A program made the translations under genes and the position numbers. 32,406 nt of DNA from Promethearchaeota archaeon (GTDB lineage Archaea > Asgardarchaeota > Lokiarchaeia > Sigyniarchaeales > SOKP01). Below, piece by piece: positions 2,622 through 27,760 of this stretch. Numbering within the stretch: position 1 is the stretch's first letter; the number at the start of each line of letters is the position of its first letter. The notes under the pieces were generated by a model. That model searched no databases, was not told where the DNA came from, and worked only from the letters and a program-made list of their open reading frames with translations. The stretch spans positions 1-32,406 of the forward strand of contig JAEOTA010000037.1 of the NCBI GenBank assembly GCA_016840085.1, given 5' to 3'.

Positions 2622-3442
2622 GAGTATTAAAAGTTAAACGAGTGGTTCTTTATGCCTTGTTGATTTTTATTGCTATAATAATGATGCTTCCTTTATGGGC
2701 TGGCATTATGACTGCTTTTAAAACAGTGGATGATTTAGTTTACACAACTCCGATAGAACCACCTCTATCTCCGACTTTAGAACCTTTAGCAGATACTTTT
2801 ACAATCATGCAAAAACCCTTAGTAAATAGTCTTATTTTTACATCTGTCGCTACAGTGTTATCTTGTTTGTTAGGTTCTATCTGTGGTTTTGTATTAACTA
2901 AAATAAAATTCAAGGGTTCCAACACAGTTTTCATTCTTCTTATCATAGGGATTTTTATCCCATATCAAACCGTTTTAATACCACTTGTTTTAACGATGGT
3001 TTCTTTGGGATTATATAATACTTTATGGGGTTTAATCCTAACACATACAGCATACGGCATCCCTATGTGCACACTTCTTTTCAGGAGTTTCTATGATGGT
3101 GTACCTGATAGCATAATAAGAGCAGCTAAAACTGATGGTGCTGGAACTTGGACTATATATAAAAAGATAATATTGCCGTTATCTGCATTGCCTTTTATTG
3201 TTGCAGCAGTATTTCAATTTACAAGTATTTGGAATGATTTTCTCTTCGGTTTAATAATAGCAAGAGGTACTGAATCTATGCCAGCCTCGGTTGCTCTGGC
3301 AAATTTGAAAGGAGGATTTGTAGCTCTGTGGAATCTTCAAATGGCAGGAACATTATGGTACACATTACCAGTTTTAATCGTATATTTAATACTAGGTAAA
3401 TATCTTATTAAGGGATTTATGACAGGAGCAGTAAAAGGGTAG
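2618..3442 (+). CDS. Carbohydrate ABC transporter permease (MalG/UgpE-like)
   Basis: TM helices; VPDSIIRAAKTDGAG loop; WNDFL motif; ATGA overlap with the upstream gene. Confidence 0.93.
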   Translation: MRVLKVKRVVLYALLIFIAIIMMLPLWAGIMTAFKTVDDLVYTTPIEPPLSPTLEPLADTFTIMQKPLVNSLIFTSVATVLSCLLGSICGFVLTKIKFKGSNTVFILLIIGIFIPYQTVLIPLVLTMVSLGLYNTLWGLILTHTAYGIPMCTLLFRSFYDGVPDSIIRAAKTDGAGTWTIYKKIILPLSALPFIVAAVFQFTSIWNDFLFGLIIARGTESMPASVALANLKGGFVALWNLQMAGTLWYTLPVLIVYLILGKYLIKGFMTGAVKG

Positions 3443-3454
3443 AGGTGATGTGAA

Positions 3455-4588
3455 ATCGCGAGTGTAGAAATAAAAAATTTGACGAAAATATATGATAATA
3501 CCATAGGAATCAAGGATATCAATTTAAAAATTAATGATGGCGAATTATTCATATTACTAGGTCCTTCTGGATGTGGAAAAACTACTACTCTATTATGTAT
3601 TGCAGGATTAATTAAACCAGATGAGGGTGAAATATGGTTTGGGAATGAAATGGTTACAAGCATAGAAGATCATATATTTGAAAGACCACAGGATAGAAAT
3701 GTAGCTATGGTGTTTCAAGATTATGCTATTTATCCTCACATGACTGTATTTAAGAATATAGCCTTTCCTTTAGAGATTAGGCGGAAACCCAAACATGAAA
3801 TTGAGGAAAGAGTTAAAAAAGTGGCTGAAAATCTTGAAATATCTCAATTTTTAGATAGAAAACCAAAACAACTTAGTGGAGGTCAAAGGCAGAGAGTCGC
3901 ATTAGCACGAGCTATCGTTAGAGAACCCAACGCTTTTCTGATGGATGAACCTCTCTCAAACCTTGATGCTAAATTGAGAGTTTATGCTAGAGCCGAATTG
4001 AAGAGATTACATCAAAGATTAGGAACTACTATCGTTTATGTAACACATGATCAATTAGAAGCAATGTCAATTGGTGATAGGATTGCTATTTTAAATAATG
4101 GTATTTTAGAGCAGTTGGATATCCCAGAAAATATTTACAATTTTCCTAGAAATATTTTTGTTGCTGGATTTATAGGGAGTCCTCCAATGAATATGTTAGA
4201 TGGTACACTTATAGAGAAGAACGGAAAGAAGTACATTGATCTAGGAATTAAAATGTATGAATTACCGAATAGATTTAATAATTTAAAAAAATCAAAAACA
4301 ACTAATGCTGTATTAGGTATTAGACCTGAAAATATTTCAATTTCAAAAGAAAGTATTGATAATTCAATAAAAGCAAAAGTTGATATTATCGAAGCTATGG
4401 GTAGGGAATTATATATACATCTTAAATTGAATGAGAAAACAATTATTGTAATAACTAAATCGGTAGAAGATTTAGAGCTCGGTAAAGAAGTGAATTTGAT
4501 ATTTGATGATAAAAGAATTCATGTATTTGATAAACAGACAGAAGAAAACTTAATTACAAGACCTCGAGAAGAGGAAAGCAACGATTAA
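3455..4588 (+). CDS. Sugar ABC transporter ATP-binding protein (MalK-like); probable start is ATC at 3455 (the ORF track uses TTG 3479)
   Basis: Walker A GPSGCGKTT, LSGGQRQR signature, DEPLSNLD, TOBE-like C-terminus; the in-frame upstream codons read (I)ASVEIKNLTKIY, a canonical MalK N-terminus. Confidence 0.93.
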   Translation: MASVEIKNLTKIYDNTIGIKDINLKINDGELFILLGPSGCGKTTTLLCIAGLIKPDEGEIWFGNEMVTSIEDHIFERPQDRNVAMVFQDYAIYPHMTVFKNIAFPLEIRRKPKHEIEERVKKVAENLEISQFLDRKPKQLSGGQRQRVALARAIVREPNAFLMDEPLSNLDAKLRVYARAELKRLHQRLGTTIVYVTHDQLEAMSIGDRIAILNNGILEQLDIPENIYNFPRNIFVAGFIGSPPMNMLDGTLIEKNGKKYIDLGIKMYELPNRFNNLKKSKTTNAVLGIRPENISISKESIDNSIKAKVDIIEAMGRELYIHLKLNEKTIIVITKSVEDLELGKEVNLIFDDKRIHVFDKQTEENLITRPREEESND

Positions 4589-11966: not shown

Positions 11967-12836
11967 TTAAATATTAAAAATTTCTCTAAATTTGTTTTGA
12001 TCAACAATATTAGCTGCCAAAATACTAGCCATAGAGCTAATACCTGTTTCATGGCCTTGCTTGTTAAAACCAGCGCAGAAATCACCACAGACATAAACAT
12101 TTTTAAACCTATGGATAATCATTAGCTCAAATGTTAAAAGAAAGACTTTTACATTAGTAATTACTCCAAAAACCCCAATTTTAGCTTCTTTATGAGAACT
12201 CCCTGCATTTTTGATAATTGTTTCTAGCACTGATTCGAGATCTGTCTCATCAAAGGAACTGAGACTATTGGAATTTATTATCACGTTAAAGTCATGATGT
12301 TGTTGTATTAATTCATTTAATGGTGATACAAATTTTGCTCCATAAGTGCCTTTTATACAGTGAGATCCAAAAAGATCCATTTCTCCTTTTTGTGTTTCAT
12401 CGGTTTGGTCATGCCAGTCTCTTAAATGAATGCATTGATATTCAACTCCACTACTTTCATTTGAATTTGATTCAGATGCCTTATTCATTAAATCTCGTAT
12501 AAATTGGTTTATTTTATCTCCTTCCCACAATCTTCTGCTTTCATCATAATCTATATGAACTCTATGCTTATAATCTTCTAGTATATGATGATAAGATATC
12601 GGTGCGCTAATCATTTCACTAATAGCATTCTGTTTCAACCAAGGTATAAATTTTTCTATATTTGCTTCATTTGCATCTCTGTTCTGATTTAAGAAGTATT
12701 CCATCCATTTATTTGAAACTTGTTCGTAGCCTAATTTTAAATCATCTTCACCAAGGGGGTGAATATCTAACGGTTCAATAAAATCATTTTGAACCGAACA
12801 AGTTATAATAATATTCAATTTTTTATTTACTTCCAA
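11967..12836 (-). CDS. Isochorismatase/nicotinamidase-fold protein with non-canonical active site
   Basis: SVQNDF, RDWH, FGSHCIKGTYGA, GVITNVKV; TTG start with GGAGG SD inside the upstream gene. Confidence 0.8.
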   Translation of the reverse strand: MEVNKKLNIIITCSVQNDFIEPLDIHPLGEDDLKLGYEQVSNKWMEYFLNQNRDANEANIEKFIPWLKQNAISEMISAPISYHHILEDYKHRVHIDYDESRRLWEGDKINQFIRDLMNKASESNSNESSGVEYQCIHLRDWHDQTDETQKGEMDLFGSHCIKGTYGAKFVSPLNELIQQHHDFNVIINSNSLSSFDETDLESVLETIIKNAGSSHKEAKIGVFGVITNVKVFLLTFELMIIHRFKNVYVCGDFCAGFNKQGHETGISSMASILAANIVDQNKFREIFNI

Positions 12837-15270
12837 AATTACGTCTCCTCCTCTTTCTCATTTTTTCATCTAATTCATCAATATCAATCTCTCTTTTTTT
12901 TCCACTACGCGGTTGTAATATCATCATTATGAAAATTATCAGAATAATACTGATTGAAGCGATATTTACTAATATTGAAATCAACCCAGGCATTTCAAAA
13001 TCTGGAAATATTGAAGGTAATCCGACTTCAATAAAGCCCCAGAAACTTAATAGAAATTCTACAATGATAATTTTAGCAAAATACTCATCAATAATTTTAC
13101 CGAGTGTGGATGCTAAGCCCTTACCAATTTTGATTTTGGGTTTTGATATTAAGGGATATATGAAATTATTTTTGAAAGTTTCAATGATTTTAAAATCCTC
13201 TTCATCACTTGTAGTTGATTCCGATGGGTCCAATAAGTTGGTATATTCTACTGTGATTTTTCTTATAAAGATAGTAGCAAAATCTTCAACGCAATAACCC
13301 TCATCAATCTGAAAAGTACAATCTGCATAATATATATCTTCAGGATCGTCAATTTTCTTAAATTTATCTAAAGAGCGTTTCGGATTTGTTAAAATCTTTA
13401 GAAAATTTTTCGAATAAGTAAAATCAGAAAATAGCAGATTATCTTTATCCCCACGATCATCTTCAATATCTATGTTAATATTATTTATTAAGGGAATAAA
13501 ACTTGTTGGGACTTTATCTAATACCATCAAAAATCGAATTTGGGTTTGGCTTCGATCCTTTAGGATGATGAAATCAGATTCTCCTTTTTGTGAAGTCATT
13601 TCTACAAAATTGGAATTTTCAATTCTTTCATCCATTTCTGAAGTAGTCATATATAATTTAAAACCCCATGGAATATCTGGTAATTTAAATATTGAATTTC
13701 TGATACTATGCCAATATGCTTCATAGTTTTGTTTTACTCCTAGCATAAATTCTTTTTGGGATTTTAATTTTGGTTCAAATTTCATGAATGATGGTATAAA
13801 AAGAGTACCGAGTTCTCGCATATTATAATCTATTTGTTCCGTTTTACCCGCTAACTCGATTTTCCTAGTTTTTATTAAACGTTTCTTTATTATATCATAC
13901 AAATTATTAAGTGATTCCAAATTTTCTGGACTATATTTTGCTATCTGTCTTAAATTGTCTCCATATATTTTTCTATATAACTCTGGATCATGTTCTTTTA
14001 CAAATTTTAATTGTTGAAGGAAATGCCACACACCACCAAAATTACGTAGAATAATAATTTTATTATATTTTGAAACAAAGATATAACGATTATCAGGAGT
14101 TATTTTAATATTTCGTACAAAATTTAAACCTTTTACCGGGACTTCATTCTCAGCATTTTTTACATCTTTTTCATATATATCCATGTAATAACTCATATCA
14201 ATACTTCTTATCCAACTCATTTCATTTAAATCCCAGATTTTAATTGTGTTATCTTTAGAAGCAGATATTAATTTATTATTATCACTTTGAACATCAATAG
14301 TTAAAACTGCTTCATCATGCTCTATTAAATCCTTCTTTTTAATATATTTATTAGCATAAGTTCGTTCCCAAATTGTTATTTTTGTATCATTAGAGGATGA
14401 CGCAATCATTTTACCATTTCTTATTATACTTATGTCTGTAATTGCCCCATCATGTTCACCAATTAGAGTTGAATCTGCCCCAGCTGAAATATTCCATAAA
14501 CTTACTTTACCATCTTTAGAACCAGTGACTAATATTTCTTCTTTCAAATCCCTATTTATCATAATTTTCGTGATCCATACATCATTTGTTCCAATAACAC
14601 TAGTATCTTCTGTTTGTTTAATTATTCCAGATTCATCGACAGAAATTTTCATTTTATTAATTGTGTTATCATAAGTTTTTTCCTTCCAAGTTGCATGTAT
14701 ATTATTTAATACATAATATAAGTGAAGTAGGTTGTCCTGATTTAGATCATTCTGAATTTTAATATCAAATATAGCTTTTGGATATTGCTCTGGATTTCTA
14801 TTACTTCCACCTAAAATATATGATTTATAATTTTTAAAATCCCATCTCCTTAAATCTAGGGTAAGCTTGAAACACCATATGTAAATAACTCCGATTATAC
14901 TCCCAGCAACTATAACCCACCATTTAGTATTTCCTATTTCAACAACGGTAGAATCAATGCATAAAAGCCAATTTGTAATTTTAGTAAATTTATTTTCTTT
15001 TTTTTCTGCGCTTAATATTATTTCAGGCTTAGTCTCCCCCTCTAGAAGTTCATCTATACTCCAAACTAGTAAGTATGGATCTTCGCGATCTTCACATTCA
15101 GAGCAAGATATTAAGAATTTACCATCAGGACTAATTTCAATATCTCTCACTTCAAGTTTATGATGCGATAACATAGTTTCGATTACTTTTTTAGAAATTT
15201 TGACTTCACTAGATCTGTACTCCGCTTTAGCTTTCTTAGAATTCTTACTTTCAAAGGATGATATTTCCAT
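12823..15270 (-). CDS. WD40-repeat protein with two C-terminal transmembrane helices
   Basis: WD blades (HDGAITDISI..IASSSNDTKITIWE; HDEAVLTIDV..LISASKDNTIKIWD; VTGSKDGKVSLWN); two hydrophobic segments near the C-terminus; ATG at 15270 after AAGTGA. Confidence 0.87.
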   Translation of the reverse strand: MEISSFESKNSKKAKAEYRSSEVKISKKVIETMLSHHKLEVRDIEISPDGKFLISCSECEDREDPYLLVWSIDELLEGETKPEIILSAEKKENKFTKITNWLLCIDSTVVEIGNTKWWVIVAGSIIGVIYIWCFKLTLDLRRWDFKNYKSYILGGSNRNPEQYPKAIFDIKIQNDLNQDNLLHLYYVLNNIHATWKEKTYDNTINKMKISVDESGIIKQTEDTSVIGTNDVWITKIMINRDLKEEILVTGSKDGKVSLWNISAGADSTLIGEHDGAITDISIIRNGKMIASSSNDTKITIWERTYANKYIKKKDLIEHDEAVLTIDVQSDNNKLISASKDNTIKIWDLNEMSWIRSIDMSYYMDIYEKDVKNAENEVPVKGLNFVRNIKITPDNRYIFVSKYNKIIILRNFGGVWHFLQQLKFVKEHDPELYRKIYGDNLRQIAKYSPENLESLNNLYDIIKKRLIKTRKIELAGKTEQIDYNMRELGTLFIPSFMKFEPKLKSQKEFMLGVKQNYEAYWHSIRNSIFKLPDIPWGFKLYMTTSEMDERIENSNFVEMTSQKGESDFIILKDRSQTQIRFLMVLDKVPTSFIPLINNINIDIEDDRGDKDNLLFSDFTYSKNFLKILTNPKRSLDKFKKIDDPEDIYYADCTFQIDEGYCVEDFATIFIRKITVEYTNLLDPSESTTSDEEDFKIIETFKNNFIYPLISKPKIKIGKGLASTLGKIIDEYFAKIIIVEFLLSFWGFIEVGLPSIFPDFEMPGLISILVNIASISIILIIFIMMILQPRSGKKREIDIDELDEKMRKRRRRNFGSK

Positions 15271-15527
15271 CTTAATCACTTTTTATTAGATAAATTTTGA
15301 ATAATTTTTATTAGATTTATAATTATATGAAAGCAAATATATAAAAATTCTTAAGCTTCCTTCATAATACTAATCAAATTTAGAATCAAAATTTCATTCA
15401 TAAGTTCAATCATGTGATAATTATTGAAGAATTAAAAGAATATAATGATGTATTATTGGTTACAGCAGAAGCGGTATTTCTTGAGCAAATAGAAAAAAAA
15501 ATCCTAAATTCTAACTTTTTTTTAAAA

Positions 15528-16268
15528 TTATTCTGAGCAAAAACAACTTTCATTCTTAACAATATCTATAATATTAAACCTTAAATCAATTAAATTAACC
15601 ATTAGAACTCTATTTTCTAAATTTGGAAGACCTAATACCGTTTTTATTACTTCCAATGCTTCTAATGTGCCTAATATTCCAGGAGTAACCCCAATGACTG
15701 GTAAAGGACCTTCATCTGGGAGTGATTCTATAGGTTCAGAAAAAACACATTGATAACAAGCTGTTTTTTTTGGATTAATTGTTATAATCTGGCCATAAAA
15801 ATCTTTTATTCCGGCAATTACACATCTTAAATTATTTTCAATTGCAACTCTATTGACTAGAAATTTAGTTTTAAAGTTATCACTACAATCAACAATAAAA
15901 TCATAACTATCATCTCTGAGATATTTATATATTGAATTTTCATCAATAAATTCCTTATAAGTGTTAATTTCAACGTCAGAATTTAACTTAGTTAATACAT
16001 CTTTTGCTGATTCCGCCTTTGCTTTTCCAATTTGAGTTTCATTATAGAGTATTTGTCTTTGCAAATTCGAAATATCTAAAATATCATTATCTATTATAGT
16101 TAGGTTTTTAATCCCTGCTGAAACCAGATATAAAGCAAATGGAGAACCTAAACCTCCAGCTCCTATTTGTAAAACTTTTATTTTGGATAGTTTTTCTTGT
16201 CCTTTCTCTCCAATTAAAGGAGAGATAATTTGTCTTGAATATCGTTCTTTTTGCTTTTGAGTTAAGAT
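15528..16268 (-). CDS. HesA/MoeB/ThiF family (E1-like) adenylyltransferase; extends 68 codons upstream of the track ORF, probable ATC start at 16268
   Basis: In-frame upstream translation (I)LTQKQKERYSRQIISPLIGEKGQEKL..LQIGAGGLGSP..IIDNDILDISNLQRQ; DCSDN; Zn motifs CYQC and CFC. Confidence 0.9.
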   Translation of the reverse strand: MLTQKQKERYSRQIISPLIGEKGQEKLSKIKVLQIGAGGLGSPFALYLVSAGIKNLTIIDNDILDISNLQRQILYNETQIGKAKAESAKDVLTKLNSDVEINTYKEFIDENSIYKYLRDDSYDFIVDCSDNFKTKFLVNRVAIENNLRCVIAGIKDFYGQIITINPKKTACYQCVFSEPIESLPDEGPLPVIGVTPGILGTLEALEVIKTVLGLPNLENRVLMVNLIDLRFNIIDIVKNESCFCSE

Positions 16269-16274
16269 TAGACT

Positions 16275-16649
16275 TCACCTCTTTAATATTTTTTTTATAT
16301 TCTTTATAGTTTCTTCAATCTCAATAAAAATTAAACCTAAATTGATATTTAAATCTACTAATATGACTAAAATAAATTGTTCATCTGCTCCAACAATAAG
16401 AAGCTGATAATCATTGAATTCAACCGTAAGATTGTTAACTTGGTTTTCTTTCACAGCTGTAACGGCAGTTTCAATCGCTCCAAACATTGTGGCTGCCATT
16501 GCCCCGAATTTTCTATCATCTATGTCCCTTGGTAGCCTTGATGCTATTAACAAACCGTTACGGTTTACAATAGCACTGCCTATGAAATCTCCTAAGATTT
16601 CCAACTTTTCTAATTCTTTATCGAGACTCTCAATTTTTAAATTATTCAT
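16275..16649 (-). CDS. Roadblock/LC7 (MglB-like) domain protein
   Basis: GSAIVNRNGLLIAS, FGAMAATMFGA, NLGLIFIEI; 124 aa. Confidence 0.9.
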   Translation of the reverse strand: MNNLKIESLDKELEKLEILGDFIGSAIVNRNGLLIASRLPRDIDDRKFGAMAATMFGAIETAVTAVKENQVNNLTVEFNDYQLLIVGADEQFILVILVDLNINLGLIFIEIEETIKNIKKILKR

Positions 16650-16759: not shown

Positions 16760-16966
16760 TTAAAACTTACGATAAAAAGATTTTTGTCCATTAAAAGGTC
16801 TATGCCTGTTTCTCCAGCTTGGTTGGCGGAGTTTAGCAGATTTTCCAAAGCCACAATAAGCACAAAATCTTTTTCGTCGATGATAAGAGTGCCTTCCACA
16901 TCGCCTACAAGTTTTATGGCTTGCAGCTTTGTTTTTTTTCCCTTTACTAGGAGTACCTTTTCCCAT
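16760..16966 (-). CDS. rpl37e: 50S ribosomal protein L37e
   Basis: [22 protein letters not shown]....CAYCGFG zinc ribbon. Confidence 0.97.
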
Positions 16967-16987: not shown

Positions 16988-17296
16988 CTATACTTCTTCG
17001 CTTTCTTCTCTATGCATTAACTTTTCTTCGGGTGTACCTGCAAAAATTAATTTTTCTCTGTCTTGACCTACGTAAATGACAGATGCGCCCCGAATCATGA
17101 CTGTTCCTAAATCCTTACTACGTTTACCTCCCCTTCCGAAATATACCTCTTTGGCATCTTTAACAATTAAATTCATATAATTATCAAATTTAATTAGCTT
17201 TCCTGTAAGAAAGGTATTCCATATCTTTAGTTTTATACGAATCTCTGGTTTTAGAATCGCTTTGCTTAAAGTTCGTGAAATTGTATGTTGAGACAT
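16988..17296 (-). CDS. Sm-like (Lsm/SmAP) RNA-binding protein
   Basis: Sm1 motif GKLIKFDNYMNL, Sm2 motif LGTVMIRG; directly upstream of L37e, the conserved archaeal arrangement. Confidence 0.9.
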   Translation of the reverse strand: MSQHTISRTLSKAILKPEIRIKLKIWNTFLTGKLIKFDNYMNLIVKDAKEVYFGRGGKRSKDLGTVMIRGASVIYVGQDREKLIFAGTPEEKLMHREESEEV

Positions 17297-19803: not shown

Positions 19804-20576
19804 ATGAAAAATACAAAAATTGTTGAGATAAATACTGGAAAATTACAGGGCTATATTGATAAGGATATAGAAGTGTATAAAGGAATTCCATACGCTGAAC
19901 CTCCTATTGGAGAATTTAGATTTAATGCACCAGAGCCTAAAAATCATGGAGTGGTGTGTTTGAAGCAACTAAATTCAGTCCCGATGTTCCACAACCTCCA
20001 AGTCCTTTTACCCCACAACCTGCTCCGCCACAAACTGAAGAAAACTGTCTAACACTTAATATTTGGACTCCTAAAGCTGATAATAAAAAACGTCCGGTCA
20101 TGTTTTGGATCCACGGAGGTTCATATAAGACGGGAGGTGCAAATAGATATGATGGAATCCCATTAGCAAAACGCGGTGATGTTGTTGTAGTTATAATCAA
20201 TTATAGACTGGGCCCATTAGGTTTTTTATATCTCCCAGAAGTGTCTGGAGTTTCTGCAAATGTTGGTTTAATGGATCAAATCACAGCTTTAAAATGGGTT
20301 AAGGATAATATCGTAAATTTTGGAGGAGATCCTGAAAATGTTACCGTTTTTGGAGAATCAGCAGGAGCAGGCTCTATCTGTTGTCTAATTGGAATGCCCG
20401 CAGCTAAAAGATTGTCTAATCGAATAATACCGCAATCTGGAAGTTCAAGTCCGCTGGGTTACCAGAAGAGAAGGGCAATAGCAACAACACAGAGATTATT
20501 CTCGCTCCTAAATATTGAAAAAGATGATATCGACAGTTTAAGAAAAATTTCGTATATAAATGCGTTTTTTATTTGA
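19804..20576 (+). pseudogene. Carboxylesterase type B (PnbA-like), N-terminal part; frameshifted and truncated
   Basis: YKGIPYAEPP, ENCLTLNIW, WIHGG, NYRLG, FGESAG; A5 run at 19939-19943 needs A6 to join the frames (PKKSWSGVFEA); homology ends ~20552. Confidence 0.88.
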
Positions 20577-25992: not shown

Positions 25993-27760
25993 ATTCTCCC
26001 CTTGTGGCTTTGATCACCCATCTATTTTACTTTAGCCCTTCTATTTTGAACTCCCGTTATGGATAAGGACGTTTTTAAGGTCTTCGGCTATGATTTGGAG
26101 GATTTTATTTTTAATACAGATCAAATGAGGACTGAATCACCAGTTCCTCTATATCTAGGTGATATGCTCATATATACCTCCATATCACATCTGTTTTTAA
26201 TCAAAAACTAGGTATAATATCTATATGATATATCAAGAATATCTTCCCTTTGAATCTTTACTCCAACAAGTGGATAAAAAAGAAATCAACCTGCCTTTTC
26301 CGCTTGAATATACCCTCGAGAAAATTGAGAAGATCAAGAAGAAAATCCCTAAATCTTACGATACTATTGCCCGTATCTTGGCATTATCTCGTCCGGTGGT
26401 TGAATTGGTCCTATTTGAGATAGACTATCATGAACCCCAACGGGCTGTGAACTCAAGGGGTAGACCTAGCATTTCCACGACAACGCTCATTTTGATTCAT
26501 TTATTGTCCCAAACCATGATTTCCGATAGTTATCGGCAGACCGAGAGAATTTTAAATGCTCACCCCACTTGGTTAAAAGCACTCAATCTGAAAAAGGCTC
26601 CCAGTCATACAACTATGAGTAAATTCAGAAAAAACAGGGGGTTGAGTTTTTTGACACCTATTTCCATCACCTCACTGAGTTGTTGTTTGCGTTTGGTCTT
26701 ATTAAGGAAAATGACGACGTTATCATTGATTCAGCTCCGATCAAGGCGTCTCAGAATTTTGCCCGTTCAAATTCGGGTATCAAGATAAATGAGGTGAAGC
26801 TACAAGAATTTTTTAATACCGTGGATTTTACGCCTGCCGTGAATTTAATTGCTTCTGCATGTGATCGGGGACGTAAACGAAAGTATTCTAACGAGGTCAT
26901 CTTAAAATTCATCGCCTTCGAGAAGTTGTGTGGATTCTTATCCCGTAATCAAGCATTAACCTACCTAAAAAAGCATCCTAGTGCGGCTAAAATTGTAGGA
27001 TTTAGGAACGGGGACATTCCTTCTACCCCCTCAATAAATAATTATCTCCAGCGCATCCCTCCCATACCATGGTTAGTGCGTGTGATGGTGGACTCTATCA
27101 CGGAGTTTTTTGAATCGCAAGCGGATTACGACGATCACGATCCCTTGTCTTTTTTTTTCAGGTTGTTTTAAAATAGGGACCCCTCATCCCGATCCTGATG
27201 CCAAAATAGGGTATTGTGCTGCAAAACAGCGAGTGTTTGTTGGGTATCGGGCAACCATTATCATTGGTAACGAGAAAATGCCCATACTCGATTATCACCT
27301 CACCCCGGCAAATCGGCATGATTCTGGTGCTTTCGTACCTCTTCTGTTATCCATGGAAGAGCATGAGACGCTCCCCCGTGTATGTGCTTTTTACGGGGAT
27401 AACGCCTATTTTAAGACTGAGAATAGGGCATGGCTTGAATTTTATGAAAAAAGCTGCAAACTCCATTCGAACGATGAATCTGGTAAAGTACCCAAAAATC
27501 GGCGCAGTGCGAAGAAAAAATCGCGTGTACGATCCAAGGTAGAATCGACTTTTGGTATATTGGAGGAAAACTATAATTTCGGGCATACTCAACTGCGTGG
27601 ATTCAATAACGTAAAGATTGACACGTGTTTACTAGTTAGTTCTTGGAATCATTTTTTTCTACTATCATATTTCATGGATCGATTTGAAGATTGTATTAGT
27701 TTAAGGAGGTTGTTTTATGAAAATTAATAAAGGAGGGTTCTAATATTTTATCAACAGTCT
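25954..27760 (+). mobile_element. Insertion sequence, IS5/IS1182-like DDE element (~1.8 kb)
   Basis: Perfect 17-bp TIRs AGACTGTTGATAAAATA (25954-25970) and TATTTTATCAACAGTCT (27744-27760); flanking direct repeat TTTAAAA (or TTTTAAAAA if the ends are 25955/27759); visibly higher GC than flanks. Confidence 0.92.
26225..27727 (+). CDS. DDE transposase encoded over three ORFs with two frameshifts (~500 aa if joined)
   Basis: IIDSAPIKA (D1), DPDAKIG, PANRHDS, GDNAY (D2), RSKVESTFG (E); shifts at AAAAAAC 26629-26635 and T9 27150-27158. Confidence 0.85.

Follow-up and report, generated by a model that had tools for sequence, protein, structure and literature searches.

Shine-Dalgarno-guided initiation at AUU, AUC and AUA as a likely habit of Lokiarchaeia, traced from a ThiF-family gene with a very probable AUC start

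Background

Protein synthesis can begin at codons that otherwise specify isoleucine. The pcnB gene of Escherichia coli has an AUU start, and NCBI translation table 11 allows ATT, ATC and ATA as alternative initiators. Eukaryotic eIF1 is made from a start in poor context. In bacteria, infC, which encodes IF3, possesses an AUU start that is autoregulated by IF3 (PMC4705826). For archaea, reviews name AUG, GUG and UUG as starts and regard the rejection of AUU as the job of aIF1 (PMC4705826); moreover, aIF1 of Sulfolobus discriminates against AUU in vitro (PMC4705826), which counts against initiation at AUU, AUC or AUA (in the following AUH, or ATH at the DNA level). Among Asgard archaea, a 'rare ATT start codon' has been described for the tubulin gene atubA of Kari (PMC13394414), and Shine-Dalgarno (SD) sequences are stated to be rare in Lokiarchaea (PMC12993045). 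Archaeal genes can also be coupled by termination-reinitiation (PMC6728339, PMC10666635). In Haloferax, such reinitiation is substantial at short gaps, amounts to 40-60% at 13-14 nt and is gone at about 22 nt (PMC10666635).

Starts at AUH have been described in bacteria and in this single Asgard tubulin gene; their systematic use in Lokiarchaeia appears to be new, since we found no paper on it in the literature searched, most subscription papers being outside that literature. Here we study a stretch of 32,406 nucleotides of a lokiarchaeial genome from sediment (contig JAEOTA010000037.1, referred to as the window), for which an original prediction, made from the sequence alone, had proposed that an E1-like gene is initiated at ATC behind an SD sequence overlapping the stop codon of the preceding roadblock gene.

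Results and discussion

The ThiF-family gene and its neighbours

The gene lies on the minus strand (15528..16268; 246 codons counted from ATC) and encodes an E1-like adenylyltransferase of the ThiF/MoeB family. Its product scores 227.9 bits against Pfam ThiF (PF00899; cut-off 28.1) and matches the ThiF/MoeB/UbaA adenylyltransferases (PF00899; PDB 1ZFN, 1JW9) over the whole domain, including the RYSRQ, GxGGLG, NLQRQ, SDN and CxxC motifs, with the adenylation motifs invariant among orthologs. RYSRQ occupies residues 9-13 (16230..16244), of which R12 and Q13 are invariant in 147/147 orthologs, and the nucleotide-binding loop GAGGLG residues 36-41 (16146..16163), where the glycines are invariant. 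Best scores against the NCBIfam equivalogs for UbaA, MoeB and ThiF are 192-237 bits, all below the cut-offs. Whereas ThiF, MoeB and UbaA carry a Cys in the loop after CYQC, none is conserved there in about 140 orthologs of the present protein, which also has a C-terminal CxC instead of CxxC (15528-15760, minus strand; about 140 orthologs). Judging from these residues, the protein may be an adenylation-only activator.

The roadblock/LC7 gene (16275..16649, minus strand) lies directly upstream, preceded on the same strand by genes for ribosomal protein L37e (16760-16966) and an Sm-like protein (16988-17296). Roadblock adjoins the ThiF gene in 138/147 ortholog loci, although the other neighbours differ. 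Downstream, at 12823-15279 of the minus strand, lies a gene for an 818-aa WD40-repeat protein with a hydrophobic segment at its C-terminus; related WD40 genes are found near the locus in L230.

An ATC codon as the probable start

The roadblock gene, which is read from the minus strand, ends with AAG AGG TGA, the stop occupying 16277-16275. As had been described, these bases form part of an SD sequence, GAGGTGA (16281-16275), whose last three bases are the stop itself; six spacer bases follow (16274-16269) and then ATC (16268-16266), in frame with the 246-codon ThiF ORF that terminates at 15528. The SD pairs with the 3' end of the genome's own 16S rRNA (tail on contig C83) in a duplex of -11.7 kcal/mol, and canonical ATG, TTG and GTG starts in this genome likewise peak 4-9 nt behind the SD. 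The original prediction overlooked an out-of-frame GTG that overlaps the roadblock stop (16278-16276), but its statement that no canonical start precedes position 16064 is correct: the first in-frame ATG, GTG or TTG is the TTG at 16062..16064, 68 codons past ATC, which is the false start behind the 178-aa database entries. A product from this TTG would be deprived of the first 60-80 profile positions, RYSRQ and GAGGLG included, in agreement with the view that these codons are essential. The Pfam match of the ATC product, by comparison, starts at residue 10, and its alignments to E. coli ThiF and MoeB begin at residues 8 and 3, respectively. The Leu codon at +1 was also considered as a start and rejected, as only TTA, CTA or CTT occur there and Leu follows ATG in orthologs starting with ATG.

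A single ATH behind an SD is within chance, ATH making up about 10% of in-frame codons. What does exceed chance is its conservation among orthologs and the genome-wide excess of such sites, both described below. On this basis the ThiF gene is very probably intact and initiated at the ATC at 16268.

The proposed start codon among orthologs

The codon at this position is ATT in 84, ATC in 13, ATA in 7, ATG in 33, GTG in 2, TTG in 1 and another codon in 7 of 147 distinct orthologs. Within the genus, all 21 of 21 orthologs have ATH 6 nt past the roadblock TGA. Interchange among start codons at this site had been named as a mark of a genuine start, and it is found in the class of orthologs with GTGA followed by six bases (n = 75), which have ATT (53), ATC (12), ATA (6), ATG (3) or GTG (1) and no non-start codon. 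ATT, ATC and ATA all also encode Ile; at interior Ile columns of the same genes, changes to non-start codons outnumber those to start codons by 186 to 33. Orthologs are kin, so that p-values across them are overstated. We counted changes on a quick tree built without the start codon, on which the ATH label requires 12 changes, at least 5 of them forced by strongly supported branches.

Measured against the 16S tail of this genome, an SD-like element is kept in 77/87 ATH orthologs (mean -8.4 kcal/mol) vs only 9/33 ATG orthologs (mean -4.9 kcal/mol). The spacer (16269..16274 here) has a fixed length in the clade and a variable sequence: both of its codons vary freely among the GTGA-N6 orthologs, 22 of these 75 have one or two further stops (TGA, TAA or TAG) inside it, and in three a stop stands immediately before ATH (e.g. 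TGA TAA TAA ATC in L104). Downstream of the start, codons 1-67 display 1847 third-position vs 258 second-position differences, a sign of purifying selection. Some orthologs may begin elsewhere. One clade of 17 has ATG, GTG or ATA two codons upstream of ATH, so that Ile may be the true third residue there rather than the start, and two of its members have ATG at the position itself; where the spacer measures 5 nt, as in a few orthologs, the GTG of the SD is in frame and could serve as an alternative start.

Probable ATH starts elsewhere in the genome

To assess the remaining genes, we considered the 5' ends of long ORFs and the codon at fixed spacing behind GGTGN. At spacing 6, ATH accounts for 41 of 107 non-canonical codons, vs 174/1329 at other spacings (p 5e-10), and in gene interiors, which served as control, for 37 of 528 behind GGTGN. 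An out-of-frame control is biased by codon make-up and was not relied on. Spacings 5-6 together hold 85 ATH, about 42 above expectation, alongside excesses of 46 ATG, 22 TTG and 8 GTG; the ~42 excess ATH starts correspond to ~1% of roughly 3,900 long ORFs. This count is a lower bound, because the enrichment is seen only 5-6 nt behind GGTGN and spacings like that of the aIF1 gene (see below) are missed. There is no ATH excess behind AGTG[AT] or for the GTGA pattern over spacings 4-10; in the same scan ACG shows no excess and CTG a small one (7 seen vs about 0.5 expected). The residues that follow SD-ATH sites resemble those after ATG (S/A/P/K at a frequency of 0.46 vs 0.42; background 0.25). 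Furthermore, eight of 44 listed candidates give a profile match that starts no later than the eighth residue, far ahead of the next canonical codon; these are uL16, eL21, an SDR, inositol-phosphate synthase, an aminotransferase, MptA, a small GTPase and a protein of the ornithine cyclodeaminase family. Together with the interchange of start codons among orthologs, the enrichment of ATH 5-6 nt behind GGTGN bears out the proposal that SD-driven AUC initiation is a regular mode in this lineage: most likely, AUU, AUC or AUA is the start of about 40-55 genes that carry a GGTG-type SD, as a lineage-wide habit.

A second case in the window, an ABC ATPase gene on the plus strand (3442..4588), has the arrangement that had been reported for it, with GAGGTGA at 3442-3448, 6 nt and ATC at 3455. 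The in-frame TGA at 3446-3448 is not the stop of a gene, as the upstream gene has already ended at TAG 3440-3442, and ATG stands in place of the ATC in three more distant orthologs. The uL16 gene has ATC in this genome and no canonical codon for 109 codons; at its start one congener has ATA, another genus TTG and most family members ATG. As to the possible tuning of downstream operon genes that had been proposed, the presence of ATH starts on uL16 and eL21 suggests that such starts need not be weak. Routine use of AUH for core genes in a lineage so close to eukaryotes would bear on the evolution of strict AUG selection. AUH starts may even reach beyond Lokiarchaeia, for L279, a genome from another class of the phylum, has an apparent ATT in uL16 where its sister L278 has TTG. 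A second uL16 copy in the present genome (L331; G000:C75:23781-24053), truncated to about 91 matched aa, 75% identical and starting with ATG, is contamination or a gene remnant.

Alternative explanations

Could the UGA instead be read through, by a near-cognate tRNA or as selenocysteine, to yield a roadblock-ThiF fusion of ~373 aa? This had already been proposed as the less likely reading, and we consider it very improbable. The two frames do coincide in 76 of 138 adjacent loci, but they differ in the other 62, and a shared frame needs no special cause because TGA sits in the SD and the spacer has six bases. In 29/138 loci the roadblock stop is TAA or TAG, the spacer codons are unconserved, and the double and triple stops of 22/75 orthologs already refute readthrough as the main route. 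Between 14800 and 17500 no SECIS family was matched, and Rfam yielded just a chance match; a tRNA-Sec was not found above the cut-off in the genome, which is uninformative since tRNA recovery is incomplete. A search for natural fusions, as had been suggested, gave a divided answer. Thirteen database entries of 371-411 aa contain both domains, yet W or WW marks the junction in all 13, and the three checked (3/3), from contigs of 1.4-3.5 kb, require TGA=W for their translation; these entries are gene-caller artefacts on short contigs. In a metagenome contig (L227), on the other hand, AGA replaces TGA (960-1030) and creates a true fused ORF, which rests on one base in one 1.9-kb contig and could be a sequencing error. 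A +1 frameshift into the ThiF frame, following a start at the GTG within the roadblock stop overlap, is scarcely more attractive, and we give it an equally small chance. Coupling most commonly involves an overlap of four bases (PMC10666635), every one of the 70 ATH orthologs of the class has GTGA (for which the class was selected), and with a 5-nt spacer GTG lies in the ThiF frame. GTGA is, however, the 3' half of the SD, a conserved shift site is absent (spacer positions are 39-66% conserved), and the GTG frame shuts after two codons in 6 orthologs. Nor does a frameshift explain why ATH, ATG or GTG always lies 6 nt on, how the half of orthologs with AGTGA are translated, or why ATH starts occur without a gene just upstream. 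An assembly error or pseudogene, with an ATG hidden or recently lost, is the least credible of all: the genome, a MAG, is 7.6% contaminated and the best-matching runs may be its source, but the junction is without indel in four runs, which come from two studies. In X1, X2 and X4, contigs span it with neither differences nor gaps (X1 and X2 are possibly the assembly's source, and X4 is from the same study); in X5, a related strain from the other study, a contig spans it with 0 gaps. About 100 independent assemblies have the same state, the catalytic motifs are invariant and substitutions mainly synonymous, and no other close ThiF-type gene exists in the genome, which holds two GG-ending ThiS/MoaD-like proteins. 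Neither a hidden ATG nor relaxed selection in a lone copy, which the original prediction had named as fatal to it, was encountered, orthologs being mostly ATH; as far as the sequences go, their conservation already refutes this explanation.

An ATH start that works solely through termination-reinitiation from roadblock would be an addition to SD-guided initiation and compatible with it. Roadblock lies within -30 to +25 nt in 138/147 loci, Haloferax reinitiates substantially at short gaps (PMC10666635), and the locus resembles known archaeal coupling (PMC6728339, PMC10666635) in that the upstream gene closes with the SD and the gap to its stop is very short, namely 6 nt. It differs in that this clade has no -4 or -1 overlap and that the start is near-cognate. 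Genome-wide, however, an upstream stop within 15 nt is found for 13 of 85 SD-ATH vs 18 of 55 SD-ATG sites (p 0.02), and 57 of the 85 SD-ATH sites, a set that includes chance sites, are more than 60 nt from the upstream stop. Since SD-ATH sites lie close to an upstream stop less often than SD-ATG sites do, AUH initiation does not appear to require coupling, and the idea of translational coupling as a general rule finds no support. Coupling is plausible for the roadblock-ThiF pair, whereas obligate coupling seems rather unlikely to us.

Initiation mechanism and aIF1

The preferred reading is ordinary SD-guided initiation at AUH, given a strong SD and 5-6 nt spacing. The 3' end of the 16S rRNA would pair with GAGGUGA and place the 30S subunit such that the AUC, 6 nt downstream, comes to lie in the P site; ordinary Met-tRNAi (anticodon CAU) would then pair with A-U, the third-position mismatch being tolerated, and synthesis would begin with Met-Leu-Thr. 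What the comparison establishes is the sequence, its conservation, the codon interchange, the dependence on the SD and the genome-wide excess, and from these we infer initiation itself and the use of Met-tRNAi, as well as any coupling to roadblock termination or role of aIF1. A pattern search revealed an initiator-like tRNA on contig C22 with a CAT anticodon, three G-C pairs and an intron that directly follows the anticodon. No special initiator tRNA was seen in the genome, within an incomplete tRNA set (ARAGORN recovered 8-13, Rfam 21). Many tRNA genes contain introns at varied positions (e.g. C83:212-313, C85:34167-34299 and that on C22).

The aIF1 gene (L031, G000:C81; compared with L032-L060 and L252-L274) is intact, with its zinc knuckle present. 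In every readable locus of its genus g1 the same codon is ATT, never ATC or ATA, and no canonical codon occurs before the zinc knuckle; an SD-like element lies about 9 nt upstream of ATT, wider than usual. Other families have TTG, GTG, ATG or ATA at this start. Altered start-fidelity residues in aIF1 had been suspected, and inspection did reveal a difference: loop 1 reads [RK]WG[RK] in the three families of this order vs [RK]YG[RK] in the remaining families of its class. The loop-1 Tyr stabilises the 30S:mRNA complex in Pyrococcus (PMC6237735), and Trp in its place may contribute to relaxed start selection. This is only a lead, because ATA or ATT starts also occur outside the order.

The situation recalls infC in the SD-anchored initiation at an Ile codon and in the possession of an invariant ATT, with no canonical start in the genus, by the gene of a fidelity factor. 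It is unlike infC in that an archaeon with aIF1 and aIF2 instead of IF3 is concerned, that dozens of genes are involved and that each of the three ATH codons interchanges with ATG. By analogy, Lokiarchaeia might have a relaxed, self-regulated start filter, in which the level of AUU-made aIF1 sets the translation of 40 or more AUH-started genes and the loop-1 Trp may add to the effect. We put this forward tentatively, as a doubtful though conceivable extension, and the feedback control and the reduced fidelity via aIF1 are both inferences. If true, the closest relatives of eukaryotes would possess a fidelity feedback regulon of ribosomal proteins, an E1-like enzyme and GTPases.

Consequences for annotation

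Common gene finders would miss such probable AUH starts, and the proteins are consequently cut short or wrongly fused to their neighbours. The systematic mis-annotation that had been anticipated is real in so far as the ThiF protein appears in databases as truncations of 167-214 aa and 232 aa and as spurious roadblock-E1 fusions of 371-411 aa. It is not universal, since some NCBI orthologs already begin at ATT or ATA, as table 11 permits (MFX0165106.1, UCC21346.1). Use of these initiators is inconsistent, though (MFX1304181.1 starts 14 codons late), and other pipelines give the 167-214-aa truncations or the TGA=W fusions. The thirteen spurious fusions (P0001, P0003, P0010 and ten more proteins) are a trap for studies of Asgard domain architecture. 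Asgard proteins are often cloned from gene calls, so wrong starts matter in practice. The Kari atubA gene (PMC13394414) is comparable in having ATT behind a likely ribosome-binding site and a truncated database protein; unlike the present case, it is a single gene from another Asgard group, mentioned in a methods section and treated as rare. The stated rarity of SD sequences in Lokiarchaea may partly reflect miscalled starts.

Other features of the window

Two further regions of the plus strand contain apparently disrupted reading frames. A carboxylesterase-family gene (19804-20576) appears broken: its 206-aa ORF spans no more than positions 56-245 of the 515-position profile, and a short ORF overlaps it on the upstream side. 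A DDE transposase ORF (27110-27727) is preceded by overlapping ORFs in other frames, and the region as a whole (26225-27727) is probably a degraded or frameshifted insertion sequence.
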